Both the position numbers and the translations under genes were made by a program. Of a stretch of DNA of 46,582 nt, positions 624 through 37,620 are shown one piece after another. Numbering within the stretch: the first letter of the stretch is position 1; the number at the start of each line of letters is the position of its first letter. The stretch is from a virus (taxonomy: Duplodnaviria > Caudoviricetes), in the IMG/VR virus record IMGVR_UViG_3300005323_000012, positions 1-46,582 of that record. One strand, given 5' to 3'. A model generated the notes under the pieces. The model made no database searches. It was not told the origin of the DNA and was given only the letters and a program-made list of their open reading frames with translations.

Positions 624-895
624 AAGGCATCCTCCCCCATTCGCCACATCCGATATTTCCAGCGAAGCGTATCGCAGAAGTCTAAAAGGACCCTTCCGGG
701 GTAGCTCCATTTTAGCATGAGTATCGCGTGTGAGAACCATTTTGGGAAACGGAGTATAATCCCGGCCTGGTTCGGGGCTATGCCGATGATCAGGGCAGCA
801 TCATCTCGCGACAGATGATGGTAGATCCCCGTCCGGACTTTTCCGGATTGGCACAAAGTAATCCTCTGTCTGCCCAATTTTATTAGGCGAGTCAT
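620..895 (-). CDS. Hypothetical protein (probable start MTRLIKLG)
   Basis: ORF coupled to both neighbours by ATGA overlaps. Confidence 0.45.
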   Translation of the reverse strand: MTRLIKLGRQRITLCQSGKVRTGIYHHLSRDDAALIIGIAPNQAGIILRFPKWFSHAILMLKWSYPGRVLLDFCDTLRWKYRMWRMGEDAL

Positions 896-1200
896 AGAAT
901 CGCCTCGATCGTTTTCAGGCTCTTCTTCAGAGCCTTTCGGCAGTCTTCGCCGGCTGGAGTGAGATACCACTTTCGAGTTCTCTCATTCCATGCAACGCTT
1001 CCAGTCTCAACCAATCGCTCTAGGTGCCGATTGGTGACGACGAAACTCAGATTTAGGCTGTAGACGATTGCCGTCTTGTGACGATCTTCCGCGGCCAAAA
1101 AATCCAAAATGTCCAAAATAATGCGCTCTCGTGAGCGCCTGATTCGCTTATTCTCTACCGGCCTCATGTATCCTCCTGGCCGGTAAAACGCTATGCGCAA
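892..1200 (-). CDS. Archaeal winged-helix regulator (HTH_45/COG3432-like)
   Basis: RRSRERIILDIL...KTAIVYSLNLS...HLERLVETG...WYLTPAG pattern typical of this family. Confidence 0.8.
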   Translation of the reverse strand: MRIAFYRPGGYMRPVENKRIRRSRERIILDILDFLAAEDRHKTAIVYSLNLSFVVTNRHLERLVETGSVAWNERTRKWYLTPAGEDCRKALKKSLKTIEAIL

Positions 1201-1593: not shown

Positions 1594-1794
1594 ATGCAGG
1601 CGGAAAATACCACCATGAAGGTACGCGATATCATCAGAGGCGCATCTGAAAAAGAGCTGCTCATCCCGGCGAAAGTTTGTGCGCCGGATAAGCAGGGCCG
1701 TATATATGTGGGAGTAGACCATGCTAGAAAAAAAGGTCTACTGCTATTCGTAGCCCTATCCGATGAGGAGATGGCTGAGATAGAGGGCCGCTAA
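1594..1794 (+). CDS. Small AbrB-like (swapped-hairpin) DNA-binding protein, putative
   Basis: 66 aa downstream of TATA boxes; DKQGRIYVG resembles the AbrB/MraZ hairpin motif. Confidence 0.45.
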   Translation: MQAENTTMKVRDIIRGASEKELLIPAKVCAPDKQGRIYVGVDHARKKGLLLFVALSDEEMAEIEGR

Positions 1795-2523
1795 AACCCA
1801 CATGCTCCAGCCATCGACCAGCAGATCATAGCTGAGGCTGTCGCGCTCCTTCCTGAAATAGTAGATGAGAATGGCCCCATAAGCCGCCGCGGGCCAGTAG
1901 AGGCACGCGAGAAGAGCATCCAGCCCGACCAGCAGCGCGAGAGTCCGGGGCCGACCGAGGATCACGGGCAGAGTTCTGACGCCGTTGGCCGCGTCTCCTT
2001 TTATGTCGCGGATGTCGAAAACGATGGTATCTGTGCCGATGAGCAGGAATTCCAGCGCATAGAGCCACCACGGACCACCAACGAGCCCGGCGAAGCATAT
2101 CGAGGTTGCGCCGGCCACAACCACGGTTTTAGCGCCCGGAATATCCTTGACTCGGAATTTCCCAATTCGGCGGGCATATATCCAGCCAGCAACGCCGAAA
2201 GCCAGCGGAAAGGGAAGCTTCCAGATATCGATAGCTGCAACTATCAGAATGGCAAGAGCATACGTGACAGTAGCTAATTGCTTTACGGGATAGTGAGCCA
2301 GCCAGCCCCGCTCAGGAGTGTTGATAAGGTCTTCTGCAGATCCAGACACTTTGTCAGCTGCATAAACTGCGAAAGTGACCAGGAAAGCCACTACCATGTA
2401 TTCAGGTGTAATTGCCTGGTGGCTGGCATACTGCAGGAGAGCTGGTTGAAACGCCGATACAAAGGATATCCACAGTGACGAAACACTGAGGAACAAGAAA
2501 AGGCTTCTTGCATTTCGTTTCAT
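1756..2523 (-). CDS. UbiA-family membrane prenyltransferase / possible UbiA-type terpene synthase
   Basis: Multi-TM protein; motif 1 YAADKVSGSAEDLINTPER and motif 2 FDIRDIKGDAANGVRTLPV. Confidence 0.88.
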   Translation of the reverse strand: MKRNARSLFLFLSVSSLWISFVSAFQPALLQYASHQAITPEYMVVAFLVTFAVYAADKVSGSAEDLINTPERGWLAHYPVKQLATVTYALAILIVAAIDIWKLPFPLAFGVAGWIYARRIGKFRVKDIPGAKTVVVAGATSICFAGLVGGPWWLYALEFLLIGTDTIVFDIRDIKGDAANGVRTLPVILGRPRTLALLVGLDALLACLYWPAAAYGAILIYYFRKERDSLSYDLLVDGWSMWVLAALYLSHLLIG

Positions 2524-2556
2524 ACTTCAGCACTTGGCGCTGAAGTATATAGGTTA

Positions 2557-3285
2557 TTATAGCCTTTTTGCTATTTTTCGATAGTGCCTGTATAGATCTC
2601 TGCCCCATCGGATAGAACTCTCTCCCATACAATCCAGATCGGTGAGTGGATCGTACTGGCCTCTCAGCCCATACAGTCCAAGCGAAAGCATTTTTTCAGT
2701 CACAGCGAACGCGACCGTGGCCGCTGGAATGTCATAGAGCTGCACTCCTGAGTCCAGCCAGCGCCTTATGACGGCATGGCCGATGGCACCAATAACAGGC
2801 GTCGTCAGAACTAAGGACACTTTCGACCCTAACTCAATCAGGCCATCGATCAGGAAGATGTAATCAGGGATCACATGAGGCGATACTCCACATAGCTCCT
2901 TGGCTTTCGACATTTCTCCCAAGAAGTACTGGAGACAATGGAAATGATCCTCTACAGTTTCTCCCACCAGTTCATATTGCTCCAGCTCTCCGATCCTGGC
3001 CAGGAGATGATCAGGGATGCCCGAAAGATCGTGCCCGGCCCAGAATGGATTTCGGAGAATCTCCTGGCGGGCATCGTATCCAGCCTGGATAGCAAGTGTC
3101 GCCCGGCCTATCCCAGTGAGGCGGTAGCCCGTGGGTGATCTGGTCACGGTGCCCTCTGTGACCATCGCCCGCAAGCTGTGGCTGACTGTGGTGGTGCTTG
3201 CGCCCGTTTGGGCCGCGAGTTCCGAGAGGACGGCAGGCCCAATAGATAGGGCATGTAAGATCTTAAGCTGAGTGGGAGGGATCAT
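2557..3285 (-). CDS. wHTH + DUF1724 (FilR1-like) transcriptional regulator
   Basis: N-terminal ArsR-like HTH then FWAGHDLSGIPDHLLARIGEL, AFAVTEKMLSLGLY, YD...L...S..WGRDLYRHY, characteristic of methanogen/haloarchaeal DUF1724 regulators. Confidence 0.85.
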   Translation of the reverse strand: MIPPTQLKILHALSIGPAVLSELAAQTGASTTTVSHSLRAMVTEGTVTRSPTGYRLTGIGRATLAIQAGYDARQEILRNPFWAGHDLSGIPDHLLARIGELEQYELVGETVEDHFHCLQYFLGEMSKAKELCGVSPHVIPDYIFLIDGLIELGSKVSLVLTTPVIGAIGHAVIRRWLDSGVQLYDIPAATVAFAVTEKMLSLGLYGLRGQYDPLTDLDCMGESSIRWGRDLYRHYRKIAKRL

Positions 3286-3482
3286 GCCCCACCCCATTCT
3301 GCCTTTAGCGCCGCGTCAGCCGCCCGGATCTGTGTCAGGATCTCTGGCAGGCTTGCGCCGGCGCAGGAGATCTCCCACCCGTAGGAGGACTTTTGCCCCT
3401 TCACGAGTTTGATCTTCAGGTTTTCGGCATTGCGGTGGACATGCTCTACCGTTTTCGCCTCATTTACTACGACTTCAGCCAT
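3282..3482 (-). CDS. Hypothetical protein (66 aa)
   Basis: ORF overlapping the start of the DUF1724 gene. Confidence 0.6.
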   Translation of the reverse strand: MAEVVVNEAKTVEHVHRNAENLKIKLVKGQKSSYGWEISCAGASLPEILTQIRAADAALKAEWGGA

Positions 3483-3483
3483 C

Positions 3484-3645
3484 TTATTCCCCTCGCCTCT
3501 CTGCTTCTTGTAGCATCACGAAGCTCAGCGTCTTCGTCAGCTCAGCCAGAATGTAAGCCGTTTCGCACGGCTTAAAATCCTTCTCCAAGTCCTGAAAAAT
3601 AAAGCTGGCTTTCTGCTCCAGCTCGCGGCGAGATTTCACTTTCAC
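3484..3645 (-). CDS. Hypothetical protein (53 aa, MKVKSRRELEQKASFIF...)
   Basis: Hand-translated GTG-start ORF abutting the next gene. Confidence 0.5.
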   Translation of the reverse strand: MKVKSRRELEQKASFIFQDLEKDFKPCETAYILAELTKTLSFVMLQEAERRGE

Positions 3646-3810
3646 CTCAGAACCCCCATCTCTCGCTGAGGGCTAAGATAGCTTTCCCATGCCGCTCATA
3701 ATCTTCTGGCTCATGGGACAGATGGTAATCTAGCGATCGCTTCACATAATCAGGAATCTCCTGAGCATCTTTTCTTATTCGTCCTGGCATAGACTATAGT
3801 AGGTGCATAT

Positions 3811-3850
3811 CCTATATATACCCATCGGTCAACCGACTAATATAAATAGG
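3811..3850. promoter_or_regulatory. Divergent TATA boxes with central palindrome TCGGT-CA-ACCGA
   Basis: CCTATATATA (3811-3820) and TATAAATA (3841-3848) flank an inverted repeat at 3825-3836, between divergent genes. Confidence 0.6.
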
Positions 3851-3870
3851 ATGCCAACAGAATACAAAGC

Positions 3871-4023
3871 ATGAAACCTGTGAGATGGCCGGTTCAGATC
3901 AATGTAGCGATATCAGAAGAGCTTAAAGCAGAATTAGATAGGCTGTCAGAGGCCCGAAAGGAGAGCGTCGCAGAGATTGCGCGGCGAGGGATCGAGGCAG
4001 AAGTGGCGAGGATGAAGGCATGA
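3871..4023 (+). CDS. Ribbon-helix-helix (CopG/Arc-like) regulator, 50 aa
   Basis: MKPVRWPVQINVAISEELKAELDRLSEARKESVAEIARRGIEAEV matches the RHH pattern; TATA about 25 bp upstream. Confidence 0.8.
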   Translation: MKPVRWPVQINVAISEELKAELDRLSEARKESVAEIARRGIEAEVARMKA

Positions 4024-4341: not shown

Positions 4342-4369
4342 CACTGATATCGAATAATCGATATCAGTG
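4342..4369. repeat. 28-bp inverted repeat CACTGATATCGA-ATAA-TCGATATCAGTG
   Basis: 12-bp perfect arms in the intergenic gap between convergent genes. Confidence 0.85.
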
Positions 4370-5469: not shown

Positions 5470-5565
5470 AGCTGGAGCGAAAGGCTTCAGAAAAGGAATT
5501 TGGGTCAGGGAGGTAGCACTCCCTGACAGCTCCCGGTAGGAGAAAATGCCCAGGAGAACACACGT

Positions 5566-7122: not shown

Positions 7123-7397
7123 AGCTACTGTATGCACTTTTGGCATTGGCCTTTCTAGCCATGCCCGGAATCGCTATGAACGAGACTGATGTCGCTTACC
7201 TTGAGGGCATCCAGGACGGTTACGCCCTCGGCTATGCCGCGATCGTGGGCCAGCAGGACCCAGCCTACGAGGCTGTCTACAACCAGGGCGTAGCGATCCT
7301 GAACGGCTGGATGGATGCCGTGGGCTACACCGGCCAGAGATGGGAGAACCTGGCAGTCACCCGGAACAGCTATGTTCTACCGGAGGGGCTGAGATGA
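7119..7397 (+). CDS. Small secreted protein (signal peptide)
   Basis: MKLLYALLALAFLAMPGIA signal peptide; GGAG SD upstream. Confidence 0.7.
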   Translation: MKLLYALLALAFLAMPGIAMNETDVAYLEGIQDGYALGYAAIVGQQDPAYEAVYNQGVAILNGWMDAVGYTGQRWENLAVTRNSYVLPEGLR

Positions 7398-7636
7398 GGG
7401 CGGATCCAGAAAAGTTCAATCGTTTGGTGGCTGAGATGTCCTATTCTGCCCCAATTACGGAGGAGACTATCCGGGAACTCATCCCGAAAAATTCCCTAGT
7501 ATCGATGGAAAGAGCAGCTGCGATAGTGGGCATGGCTGATATGGGAATGATGCCTGCGGCGATCCGTGATATGCTCGATCGATATGATAGGGCAGAAGCG
7601 CATCTGAGAAAACGACTAGGAGTTGAATTTGAATGA
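7394..7636 (+). CDS. Hypothetical protein (probable start MRADPEKF)
   Basis: ATGA overlaps on both sides. Confidence 0.55.
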   Translation: MRADPEKFNRLVAEMSYSAPITEETIRELIPKNSLVSMERAAAIVGMADMGMMPAAIRDMLDRYDRAEAHLRKRLGVEFE

Positions 7637-8076
7637 AGTCTATTATTATAATTTGTGTGGCCCTCATAGCCGGGCTTTCTCTAGCTTCGGCCTACACCGC
7701 TGAGCAGCAGGCCATGATCGACGGCTCAACGCTGTCCTGGAAGATGGCCATAGCCTACGACCAGCAGGATATCCCGACCTTCAACGCCCTGGCCGACCAG
7801 TGGAACGCCTGGGTACGGACATACTTCGGAGAAGATGCCAACCTGATCATGCACCTGCTCACCGGCCCGGTGGACCTCAGCAAGCCCGTCATCTCTGGCA
7901 ACAATACGACCAGCGGAATAGTCCATGCCATTGATGGTAATCGGGCTGGGAACAAGACCTACACCACAAATGACATGAACCTGCTGCCCGCGGGCTCGGC
8001 AGAAAAAAGGGAAAAGATGATCGGAACCTACCCGGATGGTTCAAGCATCGGCGGGCAGTATCTGGGCGGGGTCTGA
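7633..8076 (+). CDS. Secreted protein resembling a Methanothrix-type exported family
   Basis: Signal peptide MKSIIIICVALIAGLSLASA; AYTAEQQ...WNAWVR..FG...YLGGV pattern (recalled, not searched). Confidence 0.7.
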   Translation: MKSIIIICVALIAGLSLASAYTAEQQAMIDGSTLSWKMAIAYDQQDIPTFNALADQWNAWVRTYFGEDANLIMHLLTGPVDLSKPVISGNNTTSGIVHAIDGNRAGNKTYTTNDMNLLPAGSAEKREKMIGTYPDGSSIGGQYLGGV

Positions 8077-8096
8077 TAGCGTGAGACGGGGTCGAT

Positions 8097-8378
8097 CTAG
8101 TCTCGGCCCATACTTGTTTTTTGGACGTCGAGTAGCATCCTGACTCTATCTGCTCGTATTCCTGCCAGACGAAAAGCCCTCTGGGCAGCCACCAATTCAG
8201 GCTGCAGTTTCGCCAGGCGGGCTTTTGCGGCGACCTCGGCTTTGCTTCCTTCCTTAAAATTGTTCATGTTTTCCAGACATTCTGCCTGCTTGTCTTCAAT
8301 TTTTTCAAGCGTGTGAAAGGCTTTCTCCAGATTATCGAAGGCCACATTTACGTTGTCTTCTGTTATCATTTTTATCAT
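8097..8378 (-). CDS. Coiled-coil hypothetical protein
   Basis: Last gene of the late minus-strand operon. Confidence 0.6.
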   Translation of the reverse strand: MIKMITEDNVNVAFDNLEKAFHTLEKIEDKQAECLENMNNFKEGSKAEVAAKARLAKLQPELVAAQRAFRLAGIRADRVRMLLDVQKTSMGRD

Positions 8379-8381
8379 CTC

Positions 8382-9098
8382 CTATATTTTCTGAATGTAA
8401 CATAACGCGATCGCGTAAGGCAATAAAGTGATCGACCCGACACTAACCGATCCTCCGTGAGTGTGTGCTGCACCACCCCCCGCAGAAGGTGATGTGCGCG
8501 TGGAATAGACATCAGTCGATGGAGATCCTACACTAGTCGATCCCCACTCCCAGTCGAGATTCCACATAGCATCGGTGTAAGGGTGATTGTGCGCAGGCAT
8601 CTCAGTTATCGTGAGTGCATGTCCGCTGATCGTCATCGACCCAGTGGCAGTGAAGGAACTGCTCCCCCCAGTCCCTCCGACAGAGAAATACGCCGCCCCA
8701 GTGCCTGCGCCGACTGTGAAGCGGCCCCTCAGATCGATAGTTCCGCTGGTGCCGTCGCACAGATGCCAGCCCGAGGGGATTGATGCAACGCTGCCATACC
8801 AGAGCACTACTAGCCCAGTCGGCACGCCCATTCCTGCAAAAGCTGATGCATGCAGGTTTCCAGACGATCGATACAGCAGATCCGCATCAGAACCAGAACC
8901 AGGACCGTCGTTCCCTGCATGCCAATATGCATCATCCATCTCCTCGATCCGTGGATACAATGCATCGTGATCATGTGTGTAGAGATGGCCCACTATAGGA
9001 GACGTGATGTCCTCGTAAATAGTCTCAAAATTATTTAGAACTGTCGTAGTTAAAAGATCACCCGACGCCCAGGGATCGTGATTTTTCGTATAACCCAT
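8382..9098 (-). CDS. Tail fibre protein with tail-collar domain (paralog 3)
   Basis: VPTGLVVLWYGSVASIPSGWHLCDG...DLRGRFTVGAG; LTITEMPAHNH; ALCYIQK. Confidence 0.88.
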   Translation of the reverse strand: MGYTKNHDPWASGDLLTTTVLNNFETIYEDITSPIVGHLYTHDHDALYPRIEEMDDAYWHAGNDGPGSGSDADLLYRSSGNLHASAFAGMGVPTGLVVLWYGSVASIPSGWHLCDGTSGTIDLRGRFTVGAGTGAAYFSVGGTGGSSSFTATGSMTISGHALTITEMPAHNHPYTDAMWNLDWEWGSTSVGSPSTDVYSTRTSPSAGGGAAHTHGGSVSVGSITLLPYAIALCYIQKI

Positions 9099-9107
9099 CC
9101 TCGTCCC

Positions 9108-9827
9108 TCATGCATACTTCATAATATAATATAAACTGTGATACAATGGTCTGGGATCTACACCATTAAATGTTATCACTGAGCCTGAATGGCCGTGCGA
9201 TCCCCCGCCCGTGGCCTGTTCGCCTATAGTGGTCGATCCGTCTGAATAACTCGACAATGCGTGCACATGCCCCGGGAACGAATAGTCATTGGTGGTCCAG
9301 CTCGACCCATACCGAATATGATCTTCATATGAGTGGGTATGAGCGGGCAATTCGTCCGTGGTCAGCGTATGCACTGTCACTGTCACTGTTCCGGTCGGTG
9401 AAACTGTTCCGTTCCAGGTGGCCGGGCCGACCGTGGCCCCTACTGCATACGATCCTCCTGCCCCAATAACGAATCGATCTCTCAGATCGGGTGAAGCCTT
9501 TCCCCCATAGGTCCCACCATCACAGATATGCCACCCAGACGGAATGGTCGAATCCGTGCCGTACCATGCCATGATGGTGCCGGTCGGAAGAACTACTGCC
9601 AAAATATCCGAGTAATGTTTTCCGTCCAGAAGGTCGGCATCGAACCAGCCCCGATATGCCAAGCTGTAAAAAGTTGCATCTGCCATGGTCCGGGGAAGAT
9701 ATCTAGTATCGTGATTGTGAGCATCTGCATCTGCTTTTATTTCGTCCCACTGGGATTCGATGTGATTCAGTGCCTCCGCGCTGAGTCGATGCGTGCTGGT
9801 CCAAGGGTCATGATATTTTTCGTACAT
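9108..9827 (-). CDS. Tail fibre protein with tail-collar domain (paralog 2)
   Basis: LPTGTIMAWYG...IPSGWHICDG...PDLRDRFVIGAG; LTTDELPAHTH; LYYIMK. Confidence 0.88.
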   Translation of the reverse strand: MYEKYHDPWTSTHRLSAEALNHIESQWDEIKADADAHNHDTRYLPRTMADATFYSLAYRGWFDADLLDGKHYSDILAVVLPTGTIMAWYGTDSTIPSGWHICDGGTYGGKASPDLRDRFVIGAGGSYAVGATVGPATWNGTVSPTGTVTVTVHTLTTDELPAHTHSYEDHIRYGSSWTTNDYSFPGHVHALSSYSDGSTTIGEQATGGGSHGHSGSVITFNGVDPRPLYHSLYYIMKYA

Positions 9828-9831
9828 ATTA

Positions 9832-10533
9832 TCACGACTTCATGATTATACATAAGGCGTAATATGGTGGTGTTTTCGACTGTCCAGTCGTACCCGTCCA
9901 GGTGGCCGGATGAGTATGAGAGCTGCCACCACCTGTATTCCCAGTGGTTCTGGATGTGGAACCCGCGATCGCCGTCCCTGGTGTCTGGTCGCGCGCTGCG
10001 TTCTCTTGCATGTAATTTAGATTGTTGTTGTAATCCCCTGTAATCCCGTGACCATGTTTCGGGATCTCGGCTGCGGTGAGTATATGCCCTGCTATCGTGA
10101 TCGTTGCTGTCGTGGTGACAGTGATTGCTCCGCCGCGTGCCGCTTTCGCGTAGTGACTGCCAGCACCGACTATGAATCGATCCCTCAGATCGGGGGTTCC
10201 GTTGAGGCCGTTGCAGAGATACCATCCATCCGGTATCGAAGCCTCTGATCCCGACCACCATGCTATGTTTCCTGACGGTATTCCTGCGGCGATGATCTGA
10301 TCAGCGCTGTAGCCGTCTAGAGTCGTGGCCACCAGCCCGGAGCCGGAGCCGTCCGTTGAGCTGGAGAAGAACTTCGCGGCGGCCTGAGCATCAGTATAGT
10401 AGCGGCTGCTATGGGTTATGGCATTGATGTACGTCACCGCCTCATCGTACATTCCCTCCAGAGAATCGAGAGCGGTGAGCTTCTGGGCGGTGCTGTGAGA
10501 ATGCTCCCTCCAGACATTTTTCGTGTAGCTCAT
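9832..10533 (-). CDS. Tail fibre protein with tail-collar domain (paralog 1)
   Basis: IPSGNIAWWSG...IPDGWYLCNGLNGTPDLRDRFIVGAG; LTAAEIPKHGH; PPYYALCIIMK. Confidence 0.88.
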   Translation of the reverse strand: MSYTKNVWREHSHSTAQKLTALDSLEGMYDEAVTYINAITHSSRYYTDAQAAAKFFSSSTDGSGSGLVATTLDGYSADQIIAAGIPSGNIAWWSGSEASIPDGWYLCNGLNGTPDLRDRFIVGAGSHYAKAARGGAITVTTTATITIAGHILTAAEIPKHGHGITGDYNNNLNYMQENAARDQTPGTAIAGSTSRTTGNTGGGSSHTHPATWTGTTGQSKTPPYYALCIIMKS

Positions 10534-12905
10534 ACGACCGCCCCGTTCTGGTATTCCATGTTCACTTGATAGCTCTCTAGGCCGGTTTTTGTCCGGTCGA
10601 ATGTCGCCCTGTACAGCTCGACTCCTGATCCATATGCCGCTGTGGCCGAATCGCCGCCCCAGAAAACGACTTCATCAATGTCACCGATCGCTTCCGCTGC
10701 CGCGATGAACGAATAGCTATGATATTCATCATCATCATTTATGTCCGGGGTGCTGGTGTGGGCCTTTCGGAATATGCATACACCGCTTCTCCAGAATTCG
10801 ATGTACCGTGCCCGATCAGCATGCTCAAAACATGGCCATGTGTCATCAGACACTGCCAATCCAGTACTGATAGCGGCATTCGTGAAGGGATTGGGTCTGT
10901 CTGCCAGCTCATAGATATGCGAAAAATTGTATAGCTTCGCGACGCCAACTGTACCTGATTCTACGCCTTCACTAACTGTGTCTTGGACTGCCTCGAACGT
11001 GTCACGAAAGAAGAGGTCCCATTCCTCAGACACCGGCCCATAACAGGCCGTCACCGAATATTCGGTGTCTCCTTCTTTCAGCTCTTCGCTGACATGCGTG
11101 ATGAGAAAATCCTCATCTACGTCCCGGATGGTGATGTGCTGAAGAGTCCCGGCTGCCAACCCCGACCGTCTCGTCTTGTAGCTGATGGTGAGTCCATCAA
11201 CGCCGTACTCTGTTATTTTGGCAGTCGCATACTCGCCCGCGGCGGTAATGCTGGTCAGGGTATCATCTACTGTGACGTGTTCCACTTTTCCAGAGCCTAT
11301 CCCCTGCCGAGCCGCATTGGCCGCTATGAGCGTGAGGTCTTCTGCTTTTGATTTAGCCTTCCAGAGTCCGTAGTACGTTATCGATCCGGAACCAGCCGCA
11401 GGAGCAGTCTCAAACGTCAGGGTCTCGGATTCGACCGCATAATAACAGTCATACGATCCCGAGTCAGTGCCCTTGATGCCTACCGTTTTGGTCGCACCGT
11501 TCACGGTCACTGTGGAAACTCTACTGACAGGATAGCCCAACGCAAATGTTTTGGTTGTGCCGTCTGTCACAAAAGTTTCAGTCTGTTCGGAGGTTTCCTC
11601 ATATCCGCCAACAACGACCTCGATATTGCGGTAGTCTGGATTCGTCCTGGTGATGGAAAGGCTCTCACTCAGGATATCTGTGCCATCTGCTATATTCCAG
11701 TCTGCCGCGTAGAGCGTCCTGGCATGGAAGTAGAGCTGCAGTTTGTAGTCCACATAAATGACAAATCCGCAAGCCTCGGCCAATTTTTTTAGTGCCGTGG
11801 TGGCTGAGCAATTGGCGAACGTGATTTGGGTCAGCAGCTCGCCGTTCGCTATGTAACCTTCCGTGATCCCTTCTTCCGCCAGGTATTCCTCGATGAGGTC
11901 CCGGACAGCTTCGCCCGCCAATGTATTTTCTGCAGCATAATCGACCAGCCGCCAATCCAGAATCGCCGTAAAATCTGTGGCTTCGATCGTGTGAAATACT
12001 ATCGAGGTGCCAGGAATTCTGACACTTTCACAGCTCTGGACCAGTCCGGCAAAGGATCGATTCTCGTCTAGGTCAGTGACAAGAACCAGTCCCCTCTCGT
12101 AGAATGCCATCGCCCCAGTCAGATCAAGGACAACAAAGCCTGCCGTGGCCCGACCATCAACATAGTGATCGATGGATAGTGGCTCATTCGCTAGCCACTT
12201 GTGATTCTCCACCCCGTCCACGCATCCTGCCATTCGCATTCCCAGTTCATATGCAGGAGTGGCATCATATTCTGATGCCAGAGCGGCATCATATAGCCGA
12301 GTTGTGCCGACCTGGATCAGGATCGGATCTGGGCATACTTCCGCCTCCAGTTCTAGGCCGCAGATTACGGTAGCCACCCAGTCGGCTATGATAGCATATC
12401 CAACATCGTCTGGATGCACCCCCCCAGGATAATTCTCATATGTCGCCTGGCTCATGATGCCGTCCGAGGCCACATCGCATAGAGCATCAGCCACGCTTGC
12501 CCAATTAGCACGAATCAGGGCATTGGCCCCAGCCCATGCGGTTTCATGATCCTCGACTACCCGCGGAAGAATCGTATGCAGTATGACCTTCCAGCCGAGG
12601 GCCTTTCTTGCCAGGCACCAGGTCGATATGTCTCCCCATATCTGTTCTGCCGTGCGGCCCAGCGAAATATCATTTCGTCCGGCCATGAGGACCACGATAT
12701 TTCGATCATAGCCAGGGTCATACAGCGGATCTACTTGAGTTGCTGCTTCTCCCACCATGTTCTGAATAGTGTCGCCGCCTAATGCGACGTTCGCTATCGT
12801 GTCTAAGCCGAGGAGTGCTTGAGTCAGGGTGGGATATGGTGTTGTCCCACCAACGCCTGCGGTAATCGAGTTTCCCTCGAAGACGACTTTCCGAGTTAGA
12901 GTCAT
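10530..12905 (-). CDS. Tail-tip/baseplate hub protein with N-terminal SGNH/GDSL hydrolase domain
   Basis: VVFEGNSITAG (block I), NVALGG (II), MAGRND (III), GVHP (V); remainder resembles a phage tail hub. Confidence 0.75.
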   Translation of the reverse strand: MTLTRKVVFEGNSITAGVGGTTPYPTLTQALLGLDTIANVALGGDTIQNMVGEAATQVDPLYDPGYDRNIVVLMAGRNDISLGRTAEQIWGDISTWCLARKALGWKVILHTILPRVVEDHETAWAGANALIRANWASVADALCDVASDGIMSQATYENYPGGVHPDDVGYAIIADWVATVICGLELEAEVCPDPILIQVGTTRLYDAALASEYDATPAYELGMRMAGCVDGVENHKWLANEPLSIDHYVDGRATAGFVVLDLTGAMAFYERGLVLVTDLDENRSFAGLVQSCESVRIPGTSIVFHTIEATDFTAILDWRLVDYAAENTLAGEAVRDLIEEYLAEEGITEGYIANGELLTQITFANCSATTALKKLAEACGFVIYVDYKLQLYFHARTLYAADWNIADGTDILSESLSITRTNPDYRNIEVVVGGYEETSEQTETFVTDGTTKTFALGYPVSRVSTVTVNGATKTVGIKGTDSGSYDCYYAVESETLTFETAPAAGSGSITYYGLWKAKSKAEDLTLIAANAARQGIGSGKVEHVTVDDTLTSITAAGEYATAKITEYGVDGLTISYKTRRSGLAAGTLQHITIRDVDEDFLITHVSEELKEGDTEYSVTACYGPVSEEWDLFFRDTFEAVQDTVSEGVESGTVGVAKLYNFSHIYELADRPNPFTNAAISTGLAVSDDTWPCFEHADRARYIEFWRSGVCIFRKAHTSTPDINDDDEYHSYSFIAAAEAIGDIDEVVFWGGDSATAAYGSGVELYRATFDRTKTGLESYQVNMEYQNGAVV

Positions 12906-23733: not shown

Positions 23734-24021
23734 TCACGAAAACGTGTAATGACGATTAATCTTCTTGATCACTACCAGAAATGGCAAGTGTGACTCGTAT
23801 TTCTTGAGCTGATCCATCAACACCATCGAGCCCGTGAAAGTGATGTGCTGCTTACCTTCTAGCTCATAGTGAATCGTGAGATATTGCGTGCCTTTCTTCT
23901 GGTGGCTATCCTTGATTTTGTATCCTGTCACCAGGATTTCTTTGTTCAGGACCTCATCGAGCCGAAGCTTCTCTCCTTCAAACGTTTCTTCTTCGGCGAA
24001 GTCCCCGAACCGTTCAGGCAT
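23734..24021 (-). CDS. DGR accessory protein, CH1-like (not Avd-like)
   Basis: Overlaps the RT stop; FEGEKLRLDEVLNKEILVTGYKI..S......YLTI..ELEG.....FTGSMVLMDQL....LPF...I resembles small proteins seen beside DGR RTs (recalled). Confidence 0.6.
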   Translation of the reverse strand: MPERFGDFAEEETFEGEKLRLDEVLNKEILVTGYKIKDSHQKKGTQYLTIHYELEGKQHITFTGSMVLMDQLKKYESHLPFLVVIKKINRHYTFS

Positions 24022-25012
24022 CGGCGAGCCTCAGAGATTGCTTGAAGTTGAAGCTATTCGCCCACATGAGCCAGCCTTCTGTCGATGCCATTGATGACCT
24101 ATACTGATCAGCGGTGATTTCTCCTCTGGCAAGCTGACCGGGAAGTGATCTCATCCGGCGCTTGATCCTCTTAGCAGTGGATTTCCGCACCAGGATGTGG
24201 TCAGGAAAGTGCCGGTATCCCAAGAAATCTATGCCCTGGCGAACTGGAAATATGTCATTCTTGCTAAGGATCAGAGCAAGCCTTTCCGCAAGGAAATTCT
24301 CTATTGTCTCGGCCATCCGGTGCAGGAACCTCTTATCTTGGTGGAGCAGAATGAAATCGTCGCAATACCGGATATAGTGCCAGATTTTCATTTCATGCTT
24401 CAGGAACTGGTCTAGCTCGTTCATGTAGAGATTGCCGAGCCATTGGCTTGTGTAGTTCCCAATCGGCACGTTCTTGCCTCCTGGAATGCTGTAGATGATA
24501 TTCTCCAGGAGCCAAAGAGTATCCGTACACTTGATTTTCTTTTGGACGATCTTGAAGAGAATGTCATGATCAATGGATGGGTAGAACTTCTGGATGTCCA
24601 TCTTCAGGCAATATGCGTTGGGTCCCACTGCTCTGATGAAGTCCATGGTTCGGCGGCTGCCTGCGTGGATGCCCTTACCCTTCCTGCAAGAATACGAATC
24701 ATAAATGAAGAGGCTATTCCAGATTGGTTCGTGAATATTCATCAGGGCGTGCTGGACTACTCGATCAGGATTGAAAGGCAGCTTGTAGATGATCCTCTGC
24801 TTAGGCTCATAGATCATCTTTTCGATATAAGGCGACGTGGTAAAGGTCTTCTCGATCAGCGAATCCCGGATATTGAAAATGTTCTCGTCCAAGTCATCAT
24901 CGAAGCGGCTGATGGTATTCTGCCAACTTTTGCCCTTCCTGGCTTTCTGGTAGGCGAGATAGATGTTGTCTACATCGACTATCTTTTCGAATAAGTTTCC
25001 ATGTCGCTTCAT
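24014..25012 (-). CDS. DGR reverse transcriptase (332 aa from MKRHGNLFEK)
   Basis: EPKQRII, DRVVQHAL, SYSCRKGKGIH, LKMDIQKFYPSIDH, PIGNYTSQ (DGR SQ motif), RYCDDF, IDFLGY. Confidence 0.96.
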   Translation of the reverse strand: MKRHGNLFEKIVDVDNIYLAYQKARKGKSWQNTISRFDDDLDENIFNIRDSLIEKTFTTSPYIEKMIYEPKQRIIYKLPFNPDRVVQHALMNIHEPIWNSLFIYDSYSCRKGKGIHAGSRRTMDFIRAVGPNAYCLKMDIQKFYPSIDHDILFKIVQKKIKCTDTLWLLENIIYSIPGGKNVPIGNYTSQWLGNLYMNELDQFLKHEMKIWHYIRYCDDFILLHQDKRFLHRMAETIENFLAERLALILSKNDIFPVRQGIDFLGYRHFPDHILVRKSTAKRIKRRMRSLPGQLARGEITADQYRSSMASTEGWLMWANSFNFKQSLRLADA

Positions 25013-25116
25013 GATGATTTTTGAGAATGGTGATACTAGCTGCCGTTCTCCTCCGTTGTGTGTTTTGCCTTTCGACAAGGTCGGCGAGTTCAGCCAGGAG
25101 TTGCTCTCCGCATTTT

Positions 25117-25235
25117 CCTGGATCTGTGCAACTGCGACTGCTGATATTCGAATTCGTGTTCCAGCGATAGTTATACGCATTCTGATACTGAGAACTGCAA
25201 TTCGCACCATTCGTCCAATAACTGCCGGCGAGCAG
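25117..25235 (-). ncRNA. DGR template repeat (TR)
   Basis: Aligns gaplessly to the VR; rich in AAY codons; 23 of 23 mismatches in 25125-25235 are at TR adenines. Confidence 0.96.
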
Positions 25236-25253
25236 TTCAAACTCGCCCAACCC

Positions 25254-25270
25254 GTAACAAATTTTGTTAC
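25254..25270. repeat. Hairpin between VR/IMH and TR (GTAACAA-ATT-TTGTTAC)
   Basis: Perfect inverted repeat about 25 nt downstream of the target stop codon, where DGR hairpins usually sit. Confidence 0.65.
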
Positions 25271-25296
25271 CCTAAATCCCGACTTCCGCACTCCGA

Positions 25297-25419
25297 CTAT
25301 GCCGGCTCCGCGCAACCGCGACCGCCGAAAGTCGAAAGCGCGCCCCAGCGAGAGTTATACGCACTCCGACACCGAGAACCGCAATTCGCACCACGCGCCC
25401 AACAACCGCCGGCGAGCAG
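25297..25419 (-). repeat. DGR variable repeat (VR) at the 3' end of the target gene
   Basis: Encodes LLAGGCWARGANCGSRCRSAYNSRWGALSTFGGRGCAEPA versus TR LLAGSYWTNGANCSSQYQNAYNYRWNTNSNISSRSCTDP. Confidence 0.96.
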
Positions 25420-27062
25420 CTTCACATCTCCATAGGTTCCCTGCGTGTACAAACTGCCCTTCGCGCCTGGCAGATCGTAGTAGCCGAATGCCTGGCTAAG
25501 CAGAGCTAGATCGATCGTTGCATTCGCAGCTCCCGGAAGGGTGGCTTCCAATCTCTCATCGGCCCCATCGTCATAGTAGAGCGCCACGCCGACTGAAGAA
25601 GCGGTCGCGGAATGTGTGATCTGCAGCGCGTACGCCGGGTTGTTAGTGCTCAGATAACATGTCTTAGCTCTCGCGAGATTGGCCAGAATCCTGCCAGGAG
25701 CCGCGCCGTCGTCATCGAAGTAGATCTGGGTAGAGTCCACCGCAGCATTGGCGTCATGCTTGACGAGGATTTTGTAGTCTGTTCCGAGCGTGATCCACTT
25801 ATCGGCGGCGTCATTGGCCATGTTGCAGCAGAGGTACGGTTCTCCGTTTGCGAGGAACTTTGCATAGATCGGATTACCGCCCGGAGATGCTGCACGATAG
25901 ACAGTGACGGTTTTTCCTGCAGCCACCACAGAACCATCGGGATTGCACTGGAAGCTCTGAGTTCGAAGCCACTGGTAGAGGGCCCCGCAGCAATCTTCAC
26001 AACCGATGTTGCTGATCATTCTCCTGGAAGCGGTATCGAGATGGCCGCCAGTGGTCACCGGATCAGCAGATCCTGCGATGGTCGTCTCCTCGTTGCTGCC
26101 GGCAGCAATAGCCTGGAACTCATCATCTTCCATCGGCCTGCAGCCAATAGCAGCAAAGTCATCAGCGAAACTCATCCAGTCGCGGGTATCTGAGATTGTG
26201 GCGCCATTCACGGATAGGGTACTCGATCCGGTGCCGCTGGCCAGATAGATCATGACCCAGATAGGCGCGAGGTTCACGGAATCAAAGTCAGTCCTCCCTG
26301 CCCAGACCATGCCGGCCTGAAGGCCAGAAGACCTATGCGCCAGATCCCACACTGAGCGAGGAATTATATCTCCAGCCAAGTATCCTGTCAGCGCGTGCCC
26401 CGCGATCGTGCCCACATTGACACACTCGCAATGGAAGCCTCCGATCATGCGGCTATTGTCGGCGGTGTAGCCAGCCGGATATGTCACAGCGGCGCTCAGG
26501 AGGATGTCGGGAGTGTAGCCACTGGTCGGAACGCAGGCATAGATATAGAAGTCCTTTCCGGCCCGGTTGGCTGCCGTGGCGTACTGGGAATCGTCCCAAT
26601 TGGCGGGGCGGTATCGAGATCCATCTCTACGGCTGCTGCCAGCTCGTAGGCGTGGTTTCCGGCCCCGCCAATGTTCACGAGCAGGTGAGAAGGAGATACA
26701 AGAGTTCGCCTGTTGGCTGCTGTATCCGATCCTTTGTTCCTCCACATTCGATTCCGGGCATAATAGGCATCGAGCCTCGCCGGTAGTCTGTTTAGAAACG
26801 TCACAAAATCACCATCCACTTCTTCATTATAATATTCAGACCATGCAGCCTCATCAGATTCATCCAGATCCACCGACCCGGCCACAAGATCGACATTGAA
26901 TCGCTTTCGGCAGACAGGACAATCACAGGTCGAGACGACCTCTCCTGGATCAACATCATAAGGGAGCGTGTGCCCATTGGGGCAGATCACATCTACCCCG
27001 ACCAGGATCGTAGCATTGAACCTGGTGTTGCAGATAGGGCAATGAAAAGACCCTGTGGTCAT
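25297..27062 (-). CDS. DGR target protein (Cys-rich N-terminus, C-terminal CLec/FGE-type fold), split by a -1 frameshift near 26605
   Basis: ORFs 26496..27062 and 25297..26745 join at ...MDLDTA/PANWDDSQY; C-terminal SNIGCEDCCGALYQW...LLAGG.W...GSR....GGRG is a CLec DGR-target signature. Confidence 0.8.
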
Positions 27063-27544: not shown

Positions 27545-28030
27545 TTATGTCCATGTTCCCGCGCTGCCGGTAATGAACCAGGCGGTGCCGTTGCAAGTGA
27601 CTTTCAGAACCGAGTACTGGTCACTGTTTGTCTTTGTGGTGGTTCCGTTGATGGTCTCGCTGCCTTCGCCGTCAACGATTACATTGTAGGCCCCAGGATC
27701 TCCGGCCACTACCACACAGATAGTCCGGCCAGCATTATCTGCCGCAGTTGGCAAAGTGATAGTAGCATGAGCCGATAGCGCGCCCACAAAGATCAGATCA
27801 GGATCAGTATCCAGAACGGTGTAGTTGGCGGTCTTGGATAGTGATTTCTGCTTGATCGGGCCGAGTGCCCCACTTATGTGCAGCATGGCGGCGGTCGCGT
27901 CCCACTGCATGTATGCGTCCTTGTCGTTGCCAAGGTATAGCTTGGCGTCGTCTGGTATCCAGGGAGCATCACCGTCTGGGAGGATCTGCACGCCCCGGAG
28001 CATTTCCATTGGATCAGGATATTGAGGCAT
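27545..28030 (-). CDS. Virion structural protein, head fibre/decoration-like
   Basis: KTANYTVLDTD...ATITLPTAA..AGR.....V.VDGEGSETING...QYSVL..CNGTAWFI, common in phage fibre domains. Confidence 0.65.
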   Translation of the reverse strand: MPQYPDPMEMLRGVQILPDGDAPWIPDDAKLYLGNDKDAYMQWDATAAMLHISGALGPIKQKSLSKTANYTVLDTDPDLIFVGALSAHATITLPTAADNAGRTICVVVAGDPGAYNVIVDGEGSETINGTTTKTNSDQYSVLKVTCNGTAWFITGSAGTWT

Positions 28031-28796
28031 AAGTTTCACTTCCTAAATTTATTTCTGGGTCTTGTGCCCAGTGATTATATAGCAATAAGAACCAATACCA
28101 ACGTTTATGATTTGTTTTATTGTGGCATGAATGGCACAACGGTACTAAGTTCCATGCCCGCTTACCGCAACCCTGCATTTTGTTGTAGTCGCAATGATGG
28201 ACATGTAACTTCTCGCCATTTTCCGTTAAACCACATAAAAGGCATCTGCGATCATATCTATCCCGTATTTCTTCTTTCAGAGCACAATTGAATTTGGGAC
28301 AATAAGGTTCAAAAGACTTCCCGCCTCGCCAATTAGGTGCCCTATCCCCTCTTTTAAGTTCAGACATCACATGCAAAGTATCTTCTGAATAAACGCCCTG
28401 TTTGCCTTTATTCCAAGGAGCCCTTCCTTTTCGCGTTTCAGAGATTTGCTTTCTTCGTTCATCTGAAAGTTTTCTGCCTTTCATCGGAGCAGGTTTCCCT
28501 TTGTGGGATTCCGACATCTTTCGACGCGCTTCGTCGGTATGTCTTCTGCCCAATTTTGTCTTATTTCCCTTGTTCGTGTTCGATATAATTTGTTTGACTT
28601 CATCGGACACGTGATGGCCTTTTGCATTCTTGTTGCCTTTCTGGGCAATGGACATTTTTTGGCAACTTTCTTCAGAAAACTTTCTTCCGAGATTGGGGCC
28701 GGTGCTTCCTTGTTTCGACTGGGATATTTTATCACGAACGTCCTTTGGAAGAGACTTACCTTTGTTCCAAGGAATATTACCTTTAGCAAATGCCAC
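28014..28796 (-). CDS. NUMOD3-repeat HNH homing endonuclease
   Basis: Repeated PWNKGK / HTDEARRKMSESHKG; CLLCG...LHVHHCDYNK...NLVPLCHSCHNK. Confidence 0.9.
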   Translation of the reverse strand: MAFAKGNIPWNKGKSLPKDVRDKISQSKQGSTGPNLGRKFSEESCQKMSIAQKGNKNAKGHHVSDEVKQIISNTNKGNKTKLGRRHTDEARRKMSESHKGKPAPMKGRKLSDERRKQISETRKGRAPWNKGKQGVYSEDTLHVMSELKRGDRAPNWRGGKSFEPYCPKFNCALKEEIRDRYDRRCLLCGLTENGEKLHVHHCDYNKMQGCGKRAWNLVPLCHSCHNKTNHKRWYWFLLLYNHWAQDPEINLGSETYASIS

Positions 28797-37552: not shown

Positions 37553-37620
37553 AAGCATTTTCGTGATACCACGAAAATGGTTATGGTTTTAGCCAGCCAC
37601 CTAAAATCAGGCAGAGGCGG

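Follow-up and report, generated by a model that had tools for sequence, protein, structure and literature searches.

The window, the whole stretch of 46,582 nucleotides that was analysed, is a complete tailed-virus genome of 46.6 kb, and the host of the virus is likely to be a methane-producing archaeon. The locus described here carries a membrane enzyme gene and a regulator gene on the same strand, separated by an intergenic gap of 33 nt, within the following set of features.

892..1167, minus strand: HTH_45 / Sso10a-family winged-helix protein, a solid family assignment
1594..1794, plus strand: small AbrB/MraZ-like protein, convergent with the enzyme gene (weak MraZ match, E 0.077)
1756..2523, minus strand: UbiA-superfamily membrane enzyme, short viral form, 255 aa (PF01040 above cut-off; UbiA fold)
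1993..2016, minus strand: motif II of the enzyme, D170-x-R-D173-x-x-G-D177, intact (alignment of 70 rows)
2308..2355, minus strand: motif I of the enzyme, D57-K-V-S-G61-S-A-E-D65-L-I-N-T-P-E-R72 (register by motif spacing)
2522..2548, no strand: perfect inverted repeat, candidate operator, with 10-bp arms and a 7-bp spacer, between the TATA-like box and the ATG of the enzyme gene
2545..2552, minus strand: TATA-like box of the enzyme gene, about 26 nt before its ATG
2557..3297, minus strand: one-component regulator, winged HTH + DUF1724 (FilR1_middle), 246 aa (Pfam; TrmB effector-domain/PLD fold)
3282..3482, minus strand: 66-aa ORF without a family, upstream in the leftward operon
3484..3645, minus strand: 53-aa ORF without a credible family
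3647..3790, minus strand: 47-aa ORF that opens the leftward operon
3809..3852, no strand: divergent promoter, a 5-bp palindrome between two TATA-like boxes placed back to back
3871..4023, plus strand: ribbon-helix-helix-like regulator, first gene rightward (PF01402, E 6e-4, 20.1 bits vs cut-off 20.5)

The co-oriented pair of a wHTH-DUF1724 regulator and a UbiA-family enzyme was already recognized in the initial annotation, and the Pfam and fold matches agree with it. Among the flanking regulators named there, the HTH_45 protein is confirmed, the ribbon-helix-helix protein scores just under the cut-off, and the AbrB-like label derives from the weak MraZ match. Look-alikes of this last protein are present at 4 related viral-clade loci (tblastn matches: G004, G005, G306, L013, L014). 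No kinase was found among the window ORFs scanned. The contig depth of the cassette was lower than that of its flanks in 4 runs, a measure that cannot rank genes.

The enzyme scores 40.2 bits against PF01040 (Pfam cut-off 34.2), and its AlphaFold model (pLDDT 90.9) matches the structures of DGGGPS (7bpu) and AfUbiA (4tq3-6) with a TM of about 0.6 and E 2e-5 in Foldseek. By sequence, the only matches among solved structures were weak ones, to chlorophyll synthase and UBIAD1 (E 0.02-0.8). The best NCBIfam model is PRK13591, which is the top-scoring model for all subfamily members tested; its cut-off of 238 bits is passed by the type-B copies only (499 and 405), and the enzyme, at 57.1 bits, was rejected as a PRK13591 equivalog and belongs to a related subfamily only. 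Identification as DGGGP synthase was also rejected (PRK12882, 35.6 bits vs cut-off 296). The initial annotation had left room for clustering with this housekeeping enzyme; the two form separate clades in the tree, and all 5 of the genomes tested encode a DGGGP synthase of their own, above cut-off and separate from the subfamily enzyme. The enzyme is a member of an uncharacterised UbiA subfamily, related to PRK13591 and apart from the lipid synthase DGGGPS.

The first Asp-rich motif, DKVSGSAED (D57-D65), is atypical, as noted initially. The canonical motif I of UbiA, NDxxDxxxD, was rejected as a description of it, the enzyme reading D-K-x-x-G-x-x-E-D, and position 2 is K, R or H across nearly the whole subfamily. 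D65, Y116, K126, D170, D173, G176 and D177 are invariant in 70/70 alignment rows; four of these are catalytic residues, namely D173 and D177 of motif II DxxxD, which is retained, and Y116 and K126, the equivalents, by alignment position, of the AfUbiA tyrosine (Y139) and lysine (K146). G61 stands at the place of the Mg-binding D72 of AfUbiA, in a register taken from motif spacing and not from structural superposition; the roles of the AfUbiA residues are described in PMC4106721 (in part). Since the D72A substitution is reported there to abolish GPP binding, the viral enzyme could be impaired. At position 5 of motif I, 32 of 35 enzymes of the viral clade have Gly and 86 of 90 type-A cellular copies keep Asp; the D72 equivalent is missing from the viral clade and from 13/17 type-B copies. 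The subfamily also has its own conserved motif near the C-terminus, D-x-x-x-D-G. UbiA-type terpene cyclases are described with motif I NxxxG/AxxxD (PMC9835599, in part), and EriG, Fma-TC and Tps1A from the same source resemble the enzyme, by motif only, in the position-5 Gly, the three Asp of motif II and the conserved Tyr. The Gly and the final Asp agree with the cyclase motif I, but the first residue is Asp, not Asn; of the cyclase motif II, QDxxDxxxD, the unspecific DxxDxxxD is present and Phe replaces Gln. Unlike the cyclase signature, most cellular copies of the subfamily have Asp at position 5. The predicted activity of the enzyme is the conversion of isoprenoid building blocks to a small molecule.

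The regulator combines HTH_5/HVO_A0261_N with FilR1_middle (DUF1724, PF08350; 63.5 bits, Pfam). Its model (pLDDT 95.4) matches TrmBL2 (E 1.5e-11; Z 15.4 over 208 residues, with an rmsd of 21 that reflects a domain hinge) and the TrmB sugar-binding domain 2f5t (Z 13.1, rmsd 2.4, 126 residues aligned). According to this model the effector domain is of the TrmB effector-binding/PLD-like fold, placed behind a wHTH as in TrmB and TrmBL2 (PDB 3qph, 2f5t, 5bpd), at an identity of 13-14%. FilR1 of Methanosaeta harundinacea shares the wHTH and DUF1724 but is described, in the available part of PMC3991700, with a C-terminal REC domain phosphorylated by the kinase FilI; the window regulator has a UbiA-type enzyme as partner, and the Pfam scan of its 246 residues gave no receiver (REC) domain. 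It is for this reason not FilR1, and the link to cell density that had been drawn through FilR1 comes down to a common domain. With its wHTH and PF08350 the regulator falls within the definition of the HTH-DUF1724 (Msr-like) proteins. The Msr-family regulators of Methanosarcina acetivorans match it in architecture and size, but the accessible text of the two preprints (bioRxiv 2021.03.04.434021, 2024.10.04.616672) ties them to methyltransferase genes and sensor kinases, not to a prenyltransferase, and names no ligand for them. The recognition helices of viral regulators vary widely. Cys223 is found in 10/10 viral regulators, where 43 of 60 cellular ones have Ser.

The enzyme gene was initially placed at the end of an operon driven from a switch at 3811-3850. 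The divergent TATA-like boxes of that switch are present: 3809-3852 is an imperfect inverted repeat (76%) made up mostly of two such boxes, with about 25 nt between each box and an ATG (3790, 3871). The gene may, however, be more than an operon tail, having a TATA-like box and a palindrome of its own, and it may have its own leaderless promoter. TATA-like boxes were seen by eye at a similar distance before the enzyme genes of L006, L008, L010, L025, L026 and L027; a sigma-70 promoter scan is not applicable to archaea. The repeat at 2522-2548 is one of 3 in the window with an arm of at least 10 and a spacer of at most 12, its sequence occurs once in the window, and it was not found before other viral enzyme copies. 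The stretches 1499-1592 and 3811-3850, named as operators in the initial annotation, have only TATA-like sequence in common.

Upstream of the enzyme gene, the box TT[AC]ATC-N5-GAT[GT]AA, with 1 mismatch allowed, is present in 35/36 cellular loci whose partner has the helix STSQA(L/I)IPKIR, in 2/44 other cellular loci and in 0/15 viral ones; it was first spotted by eye in these same related loci. De novo it was recovered in 9 of 17 loci, against a shuffle maximum of 4. G056 and G294 each have a single exact copy of the box, at the enzyme promoter, and G017 alone has about 5 further intergenic sites. No shared box rose above shuffles in viral, Methanotrichaceae or ANME-like loci. The palindromic box goes with one regulator clade, and its position before the enzyme gene suggests feedback control.

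The pair is a conserved cellular archaeal module and not a virus invention. The two genes are adjacent (within 750 bp) in 42/47 and 60/71 non-halophilic archaeal loci in two locus sets that overlap by at least 5 loci, which bears out the conservation asked of the pair initially; the adjacent regulator is absent in 5/47 and 11/71. Four gene arrangements occur, and G002 and G193 each have two paralogous cassettes with the pairing kept in both. PF08350 was present in 52/52 enzyme-positive non-halophile genomes (a single match in 24) vs 4/20 enzyme-negative ones, counts that are not independent. In one haloarchaeal clade a HisKA_7TM histidine kinase adjoins the enzyme in place of the regulator (14/14), a second haloarchaeal clade (8 loci) is without a fixed partner, and a myxobacterial copy is flanked by a REC-kinase and a sigma-54 response regulator. 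The recurring neighbours are sensors, not pathway enzymes, and the conserved linkage typical of quorum-sensing synthase-sensor pairs is found here. No conserved third gene was seen beside the pairs, other clusters being lineage-specific or generic kinases. Among 2,364 candidate small ORFs beside 90 pairs, none that could be a co-encoded peptide substrate was conserved beyond close relatives, and a ComQX-like reading was rejected. The cellular enzyme copies roughly track host taxonomy.

The viral clade is supported in both trees (enzyme 100, regulator 99), and within it the trees agree (Mantel rho 0.80, p 0.0005, 12 pairs), as linked genes may by linkage alone. The stem of the clade is 1.48 for the enzyme vs 0.29 for the regulator, and the viral enzyme has no stable position in the tree. 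All 12 viral-clade loci with an intact enzyme gene and at least 600 bp upstream retain both genes. Three further viral records carry a PRK13591-type enzyme, two with the regulator and a third that ends at the contig edge; viruses are likely to have acquired the pair at least twice, in two separate clades. Single-protein scans of IMG/VR gave no match, and alignment queries were needed to find the relatives. Among INPHARED phages there was no match for enzyme or regulator, and one weak plasmid match was obtained. In one wastewater contig 1909 is joined to 3244, which hints weakly at relatives without the cassette. A literature search, mostly of openly available main texts, gave no paper that ties the UbiA subfamily to DUF1724 regulators, 7TM kinases or viruses.

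In LuxI/LuxR- and LuxM/LuxN-type pairs the synthase gene lies beside that of its cognate sensor, which may be a transcription factor in the cytoplasm or a kinase in the membrane, with a box in the synthase promoter. The arbitrium system of viruses, AimP/AimR/AimX, uses a peptide signal and a TPR receptor. The archaeal pair is like the former in the linkage of a candidate synthase with a candidate sensor of either kind, and in one regulator clade it has a candidate box in the enzyme promoter, but the proteins (UbiA fold, TrmB/PLD fold) are unrelated and the archaeal box marks few genes. The viral pair resembles arbitrium as a virus-borne candidate signal and sensor in a regulatory region, with variants that co-diverge between viruses; it differs in having neither peptide nor TPR receptor, in its cellular origin and in that no integrase was found in the window virus. 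Membership in arbitrium (which is cited in PMC12240190, in part) was rejected, the receptor fold being different and no small ORF being conserved beside the pairs. Being a cellular module that viruses captured, it is not the virus-built arbitrium analogue first proposed. The control of lysis and latency proposed with it is unsupported, since no PF00589 tyrosine integrase was found in the complete genome of the window (G000); none was found in G005, and one in G004. The virus might still be latent in some other way.

Our preferred reading, held tentatively and at somewhat less than an even chance, is that the pair consists of an isoprenoid synthase and its cognate sensor. The 7TM-kinase swap in haloarchaea and the box in the enzyme promoter fit such a synthase-sensor circuit. 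The virus would have taken the cassette, probably from a Methanotrichaceae-type host. The membrane enzyme is predicted to act on a prenyl diphosphate and convert it to a small lipophilic isoprenoid, terpene-like or a prenylated small molecule, which would leave the cell. The neighbouring TrmB-like regulator likely senses this product by binding it; it would also bind the palindromic boxes and probably control the enzyme's own promoter, giving a feedback loop. The divergent viral copy, in the early regulatory region, would supply the virus with a version of the signal of its own and might steer a viral decision such as lytic-gene timing or superinfection. Since the genes remain together in many methanogen genomes and viruses likely took them up twice, the pair may be a chemical signalling circuit, so far undescribed, which viruses exploit or disturb.

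A somewhat unlikely alternative is an inducible modification unit, which the virus would carry as an auxiliary metabolic cassette. Here the regulator would respond to a metabolite or a foreign aromatic compound by inducing the enzyme, and the enzyme would then prenylate that compound or alter a membrane lipid or an electron carrier. Quorum sensors usually have more targets, so local, substrate-induced control explains the essentially single-site box at the enzyme promoter of G056 and G294 just as well. Metabolite binding is known for TrmB-type domains (that of 2f5t binds sugar), the Msr family has been connected with methyltransferase gene activation (bioRxiv 2021.03.04.434021, in part), and the rough agreement of cellular enzyme copies with host taxonomy is also consistent with such a unit. 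Yet no transporter, tailoring enzyme or acceptor pathway recurs beside the pair, a membrane kinase replaces the regulator throughout one haloarchaeal clade, and two viral lineages retained both genes, in the window's clade among small regulators.

That the viral copy interferes with a host signalling or stress circuit, jamming it by a decoy product or a dominant regulator, or altering the cell surface to exclude other viruses, with no message between viruses, seems improbable. The enzyme did change far more than the regulator on viral entry, the viral recognition helices vary without a common box, and the wastewater contig hints weakly that some relatives do without the cassette; against this, every scorable viral-clade locus keeps both genes, and Cys223, shared by the viral regulators, looks as if they had been retuned to a new ligand. 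Quite improbable is a membrane co-sensor, in which the UbiA-fold protein would itself be the sensor of a bound isoprenoid or lipid and act on the regulator or 7TM kinase by contact, without a diffusible product. The loss of the Mg-binding D72 equivalent, the subfamily's own C-terminal motif and partners that are always sensory proteins would suit it, but Y116, K126, D65, D170, D173 and D177 are invariant, and two unrelated partners would need two interfaces where a diffusible product needs none.

A wider extension of the synthase-sensor reading, which we regard as doubtful, is that isoprenoid cell-to-cell signalling is widespread in methanogens, ANME and haloarchaea, with a UbiA-type synthase read by a TrmB-like factor or a 7TM kinase. 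In at least two methanogen lineages viruses would have captured it, and in this viral clade the synthase would be rewired towards a terpene-cyclase-like product as a private virus-to-virus channel that times infection. Archaeal quorum-sensing signals and their synthases are largely unknown, and the disk-forming signal of Haloferax is described as still unidentified (PMC12240190, PMC13464002, both in part). The present analysis names concrete candidates (one synthase, two receptor types, one operator) that are testable in tractable methanogens and haloarchaea, and proposes for the first time what kind of ligand DUF1724 may bind. Use of the pair by viruses would mean lipid-like small-molecule communication by archaeal viruses and provide a means of acting on the methanogens of digesters and sediments; even as a metabolic unit it would be an undescribed conserved regulon with viral capture twice.

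A look-alike of the 53-aa ORF (3484..3645) was seen by eye upstream of the L013 pair.

The UbiA-family enzyme and winged-HTH DUF1724 regulator that the initial annotation had proposed as a signal synthase and receptor are both found in the window, with Pfam and predicted fold in agreement. The features are:

1756-2523, minus strand: UbiA-family enzyme, Pfam UbiA cut-off passed
about 26 nt before the enzyme ATG: TATA-like box
2522-2548: perfect palindrome, between this box and the ATG
2557-3297, minus strand: regulator, winged HTH plus PF08350 (DUF1724), receiver domain absent
3809-3852: divergent element, mainly two back-to-back TATA-like boxes

A divergent element is thus present where a switch-like promoter had been described (3811-3850), but it is mainly the two TATA-like boxes. 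The enzyme had been placed at the end of the operon; its TATA-like box and palindrome were overlooked, and since these precede the ATG the gene probably has a regulated promoter of its own.

The pair is conserved and cellular, and the co-occurrence of the two genes was confirmed. When loci were fetched by the enzyme alone and the regulator was sought afterwards within 750 bp, it was present at 42/47 non-halophilic archaeal loci of a first set (two of the five misses have an upstream flank of less than 110 bp) and at 60/71 loci of a phylum sample that overlaps the first set by at least five loci. The phylum sample comprised the best 30 loci and 60 chosen among the 150 matches listed, out of 214 in all; 19 high-GC haloarchaeal loci were taken out and counted apart, leaving 71. 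The regulator lies upstream, downstream, convergent or divergent to the enzyme. Named hosts include Methanothrix, Methanocrinis, Methanoperedens, Methanophagales, Methanoregula, Methanospirillum, Methanoculleus, Methanocellales and a Methanobacteriaceae bin. The enzyme profile matches in 164/301 genomes of the phylum. PF08350 occurs in 52/52 chosen enzyme-positive non-halophile genomes (as the sole match in 24) and in 4/20 enzyme-negative genomes, the first 20 listed (Fisher p 1e-12, for genomes that are related and often incomplete). Genomes G002 and G193 each hold two cassette types, with the regulator paired with the enzyme in each. Eleven of the 71 loci lack an adjacent regulator, six close relatives among them; the five tested of these six have a single PF08350 gene elsewhere in the genome.

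The enzyme model (pLDDT 90.9) matches DGGGPS, the housekeeping lipid synthase, and AfUbiA, a UbiA of solved structure. By sequence, the enzyme is distinct from the housekeeping synthase, because each of the five genomes tested holds a separate PRK12882 gene over the cut-off, in a different clade; the clustering with DGGGPS considered in the initial annotation was not found. Residues Y54, D65, R72, Y116, R124, K126, K132, D170, D173, G176, D177, T184 and P186 are invariant in 70/70 paired copies, and Y116, K126, D173 and D177 correspond by position to AfUbiA Y139, K146, D198 and D202 (PMC4106721, in part). Motif I is atypical, as claimed: it departs from NDxxDxxxD subfamily-wide, with K, R or H at position 2. 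At position 5, 32/35 enzymes of the viral clade (that of the window enzyme) have Gly and 86/90 type-A cellular enzymes have Asp; the 17 copies of type B, the only type to pass the PRK13591 cut-off, have Gly (7), Glu (5), Asp (4) or Lys (1). Because of this Gly, the viral form appears to match in part the signature of UbiA-type terpene cyclases, whose motifs are NxxxG/AxxxD and QDxxDxxxD (sections of PMC9835599). Alternatively the Gly could reflect a weaker hold on the substrate, given that AfUbiA with D72A no longer binds GPP (PMC4106721, same part). ESM Atlas look-alikes of the enzyme structure include LytB(IspH)-UbiA fusions of Thermodesulfobacteriota, which may point to prenyl donors of short length.

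The regulator model (pLDDT 95.4) has TrmBL2 as best match. Structural alignment pairs its C-terminal domain with PLD-family folds and with the sugar-binding domain of TrmB (Z 13.1, rmsd 2.4, 126 residues), and from this TrmB/PLD-type fold DUF1724 is probably an effector-binding domain. The description as FilR1-like is apt for the shared DUF1724 domain only: FilR1 needs REC and the kinase FilI, whereas the window regulator lacks REC and has the architecture of Msr regulators. Residue 223 is Cys in 10/10 viral copies and Ser in 43/60 cellular ones.

The box TT[AC]ATC-N5-GAT[GT]AA, frequently in tandem, precedes the enzyme gene at 35/36 loci (26 exact) of the regulator clade with helix STSQA(L/I)IPKIR, the same loci in which it was first spotted by eye; it occurs at 2/44 other cellular loci and 0/15 viral-clade loci. 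It also emerges from a blind dyad count (9/17, shuffle maximum 4), which gave no shared dyad exceeding shuffles in the viral, the Methanotrichaceae or the ANME-like set. Across whole genomes, G056 and G294 each contain one exact box, at the enzyme promoter; G017 and G003 have three each and G152 one, intragenic. Genomes outside the helix clade have 0-4 each, so isolated exact matches mean little. The box supports feedback on the enzyme gene, as a candidate operator, but reveals no large regulon, a point against a global quorum system. A longer tandem pattern has about five additional intergenic sites in G017; its tandem boxes (L222 1490-1540, L237, L242, L246) precede the genes of a MinD/ParA-type ATPase and a PAS-GAF protein as well as two unknown genes, which together make up a small candidate regulon. 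In G003 and G152 a second box lies just 3' of the enzyme gene (L224 and L233, ~1500-1560), before a small Cys-containing ORF.

Neither a recurring biosynthetic or transport gene nor a recurring small peptide ORF was found beside the pair. In one haloarchaeal clade a HisKA_7TM kinase directly adjoins the enzyme in 14/14 loci (13 by Pfam, 1 by tblastn; L154, L157-L159, L166, L168, L175, L182, L184, L188, L190, L078, L082, L086), a candidate synthase-receptor pair in haloarchaeal signalling; in a second (8 loci) a fixed partner is absent. A myxobacterial enzyme copy has a REC-kinase on one side and a sigma-54 response regulator on the other; REC-kinases also adjoin several ANME-1 cassettes.

The simplest reading, tentatively held and somewhat short of probable, is that the pair is a synthase with its cognate receptor, because the diphosphate-ionising core is intact, pathway neighbours are absent, two sensor types are interchangeable and the box lies in the enzyme's own promoter. 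The main rival, prenylation induced by its substrate, is unlikely yet has to be weighed; viral interference with a host circuit is improbable, and a membrane co-sensor slightly more so. LuxI/R, LuxM/N and arbitrium are the known systems for comparison: a synthase-receptor pair would work like a known kind, but with undescribed parts and chemistry. The pairing of this UbiA subfamily with DUF1724 is undescribed in the literature searched (main texts, few of them subscription papers), where DUF1724 itself is named in 5 papers. UbiA is not mentioned in the available portions of two Haloferax quorum-sensing papers (PMC13464002, PMC12240190) or, by term search, in those of PMC9796341; one DUF1724 gene is tabulated in PMC11023807 (partial text).

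Sequence comparison indicates that the cassette is host-derived. The regulator lies 47-1,205 bp upstream of the enzyme in 5/5 IMG/VR records (4 distinct), and is likewise present in all 12 viral-clade loci besides the window with an intact enzyme gene and at least 600 bp upstream, seven with shorter flanks being left out of that count. It is convergent in L024 and absent from L042, where the enzyme gene is broken (177 aa); in this locus from a Methanothrix bin (L042 5500-9000) duplicated gene pairs flank the broken gene, and the region resembles a decayed provirus. Only six clade members are classified virus records, the others being metagenome or bin contigs assigned by tree and phage-like neighbours. 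Two sit in bacterial bins; L026 and L027, binned as Muribaculaceae and Dehalococcoidia, are probably mis-binned virus contigs. Clade support is 100* for the enzyme and 99* for the regulator, and the two trees agree with Mantel rho 0.80 (12 pairs, one an inferred join); the viral-clade stem of the enzyme is 5x that of the regulator. The viral regulators branch as the sister group of those from Methanotrichaceae (97*), hence the guess of a Methanotrichaceae-type host; the placement of the viral enzyme is unstable between trees. Over the 13-17 kb compared, L025-L027 have only the two pair proteins in common with the window. Three viral records nest inside the PRK13591 type, two with a convergent regulator, and appear to represent a second viral capture, apart from the window's clade. 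A common palindrome lies 5' of the enzyme gene in L003 (~5470-5490, beside a divergent small gene), L009 and L027; L003, a related virus, encodes an anaerobic ribonucleotide reductase NrdD (7284-9542) downstream of the pair.

The virus record (46,582 bases) is complete, with direct terminal repeats. It encodes terminase, head morphogenesis protein, tape measure, tail terminator and collar proteins, together with a reverse transcriptase, an Mtd-domain protein, RecT, a D5-type primase and a helicase; the pair sits among small regulatory genes clustered at the left end. A search of the window genome gave no tyrosine integrase, and scans of 59 and 48 ORFs showed no recombinase of any other kind; of three complete related genomes, this one included, only G004 has an integrase. 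Arbitrium-like control of lysis and latency by the pair, as initially suggested, is unsupported but may still apply. The reverse transcriptase (24014-25315) adjoins the Mtd-domain protein (25297-26745) and a 95-aa ORF, and this region (23734-27062) resembles a diversity-generating retroelement, here carried by a tailed virus of archaea. The window's two other perfect inverted repeats with arms of at least 10, at 4342-4369 (12 bp) and 37556-37579 (10 bp), are candidate operators or origin elements. In the tail region, a 791-aa protein (10530-12905) carries a GDSL lipase/acylhydrolase domain at its N-terminus and is 61% identical to its counterpart in the related virus G005. The head genes include a homing-endonuclease-like NUMOD3-repeat protein (28014-28796) with a relative in G004, another related virus.
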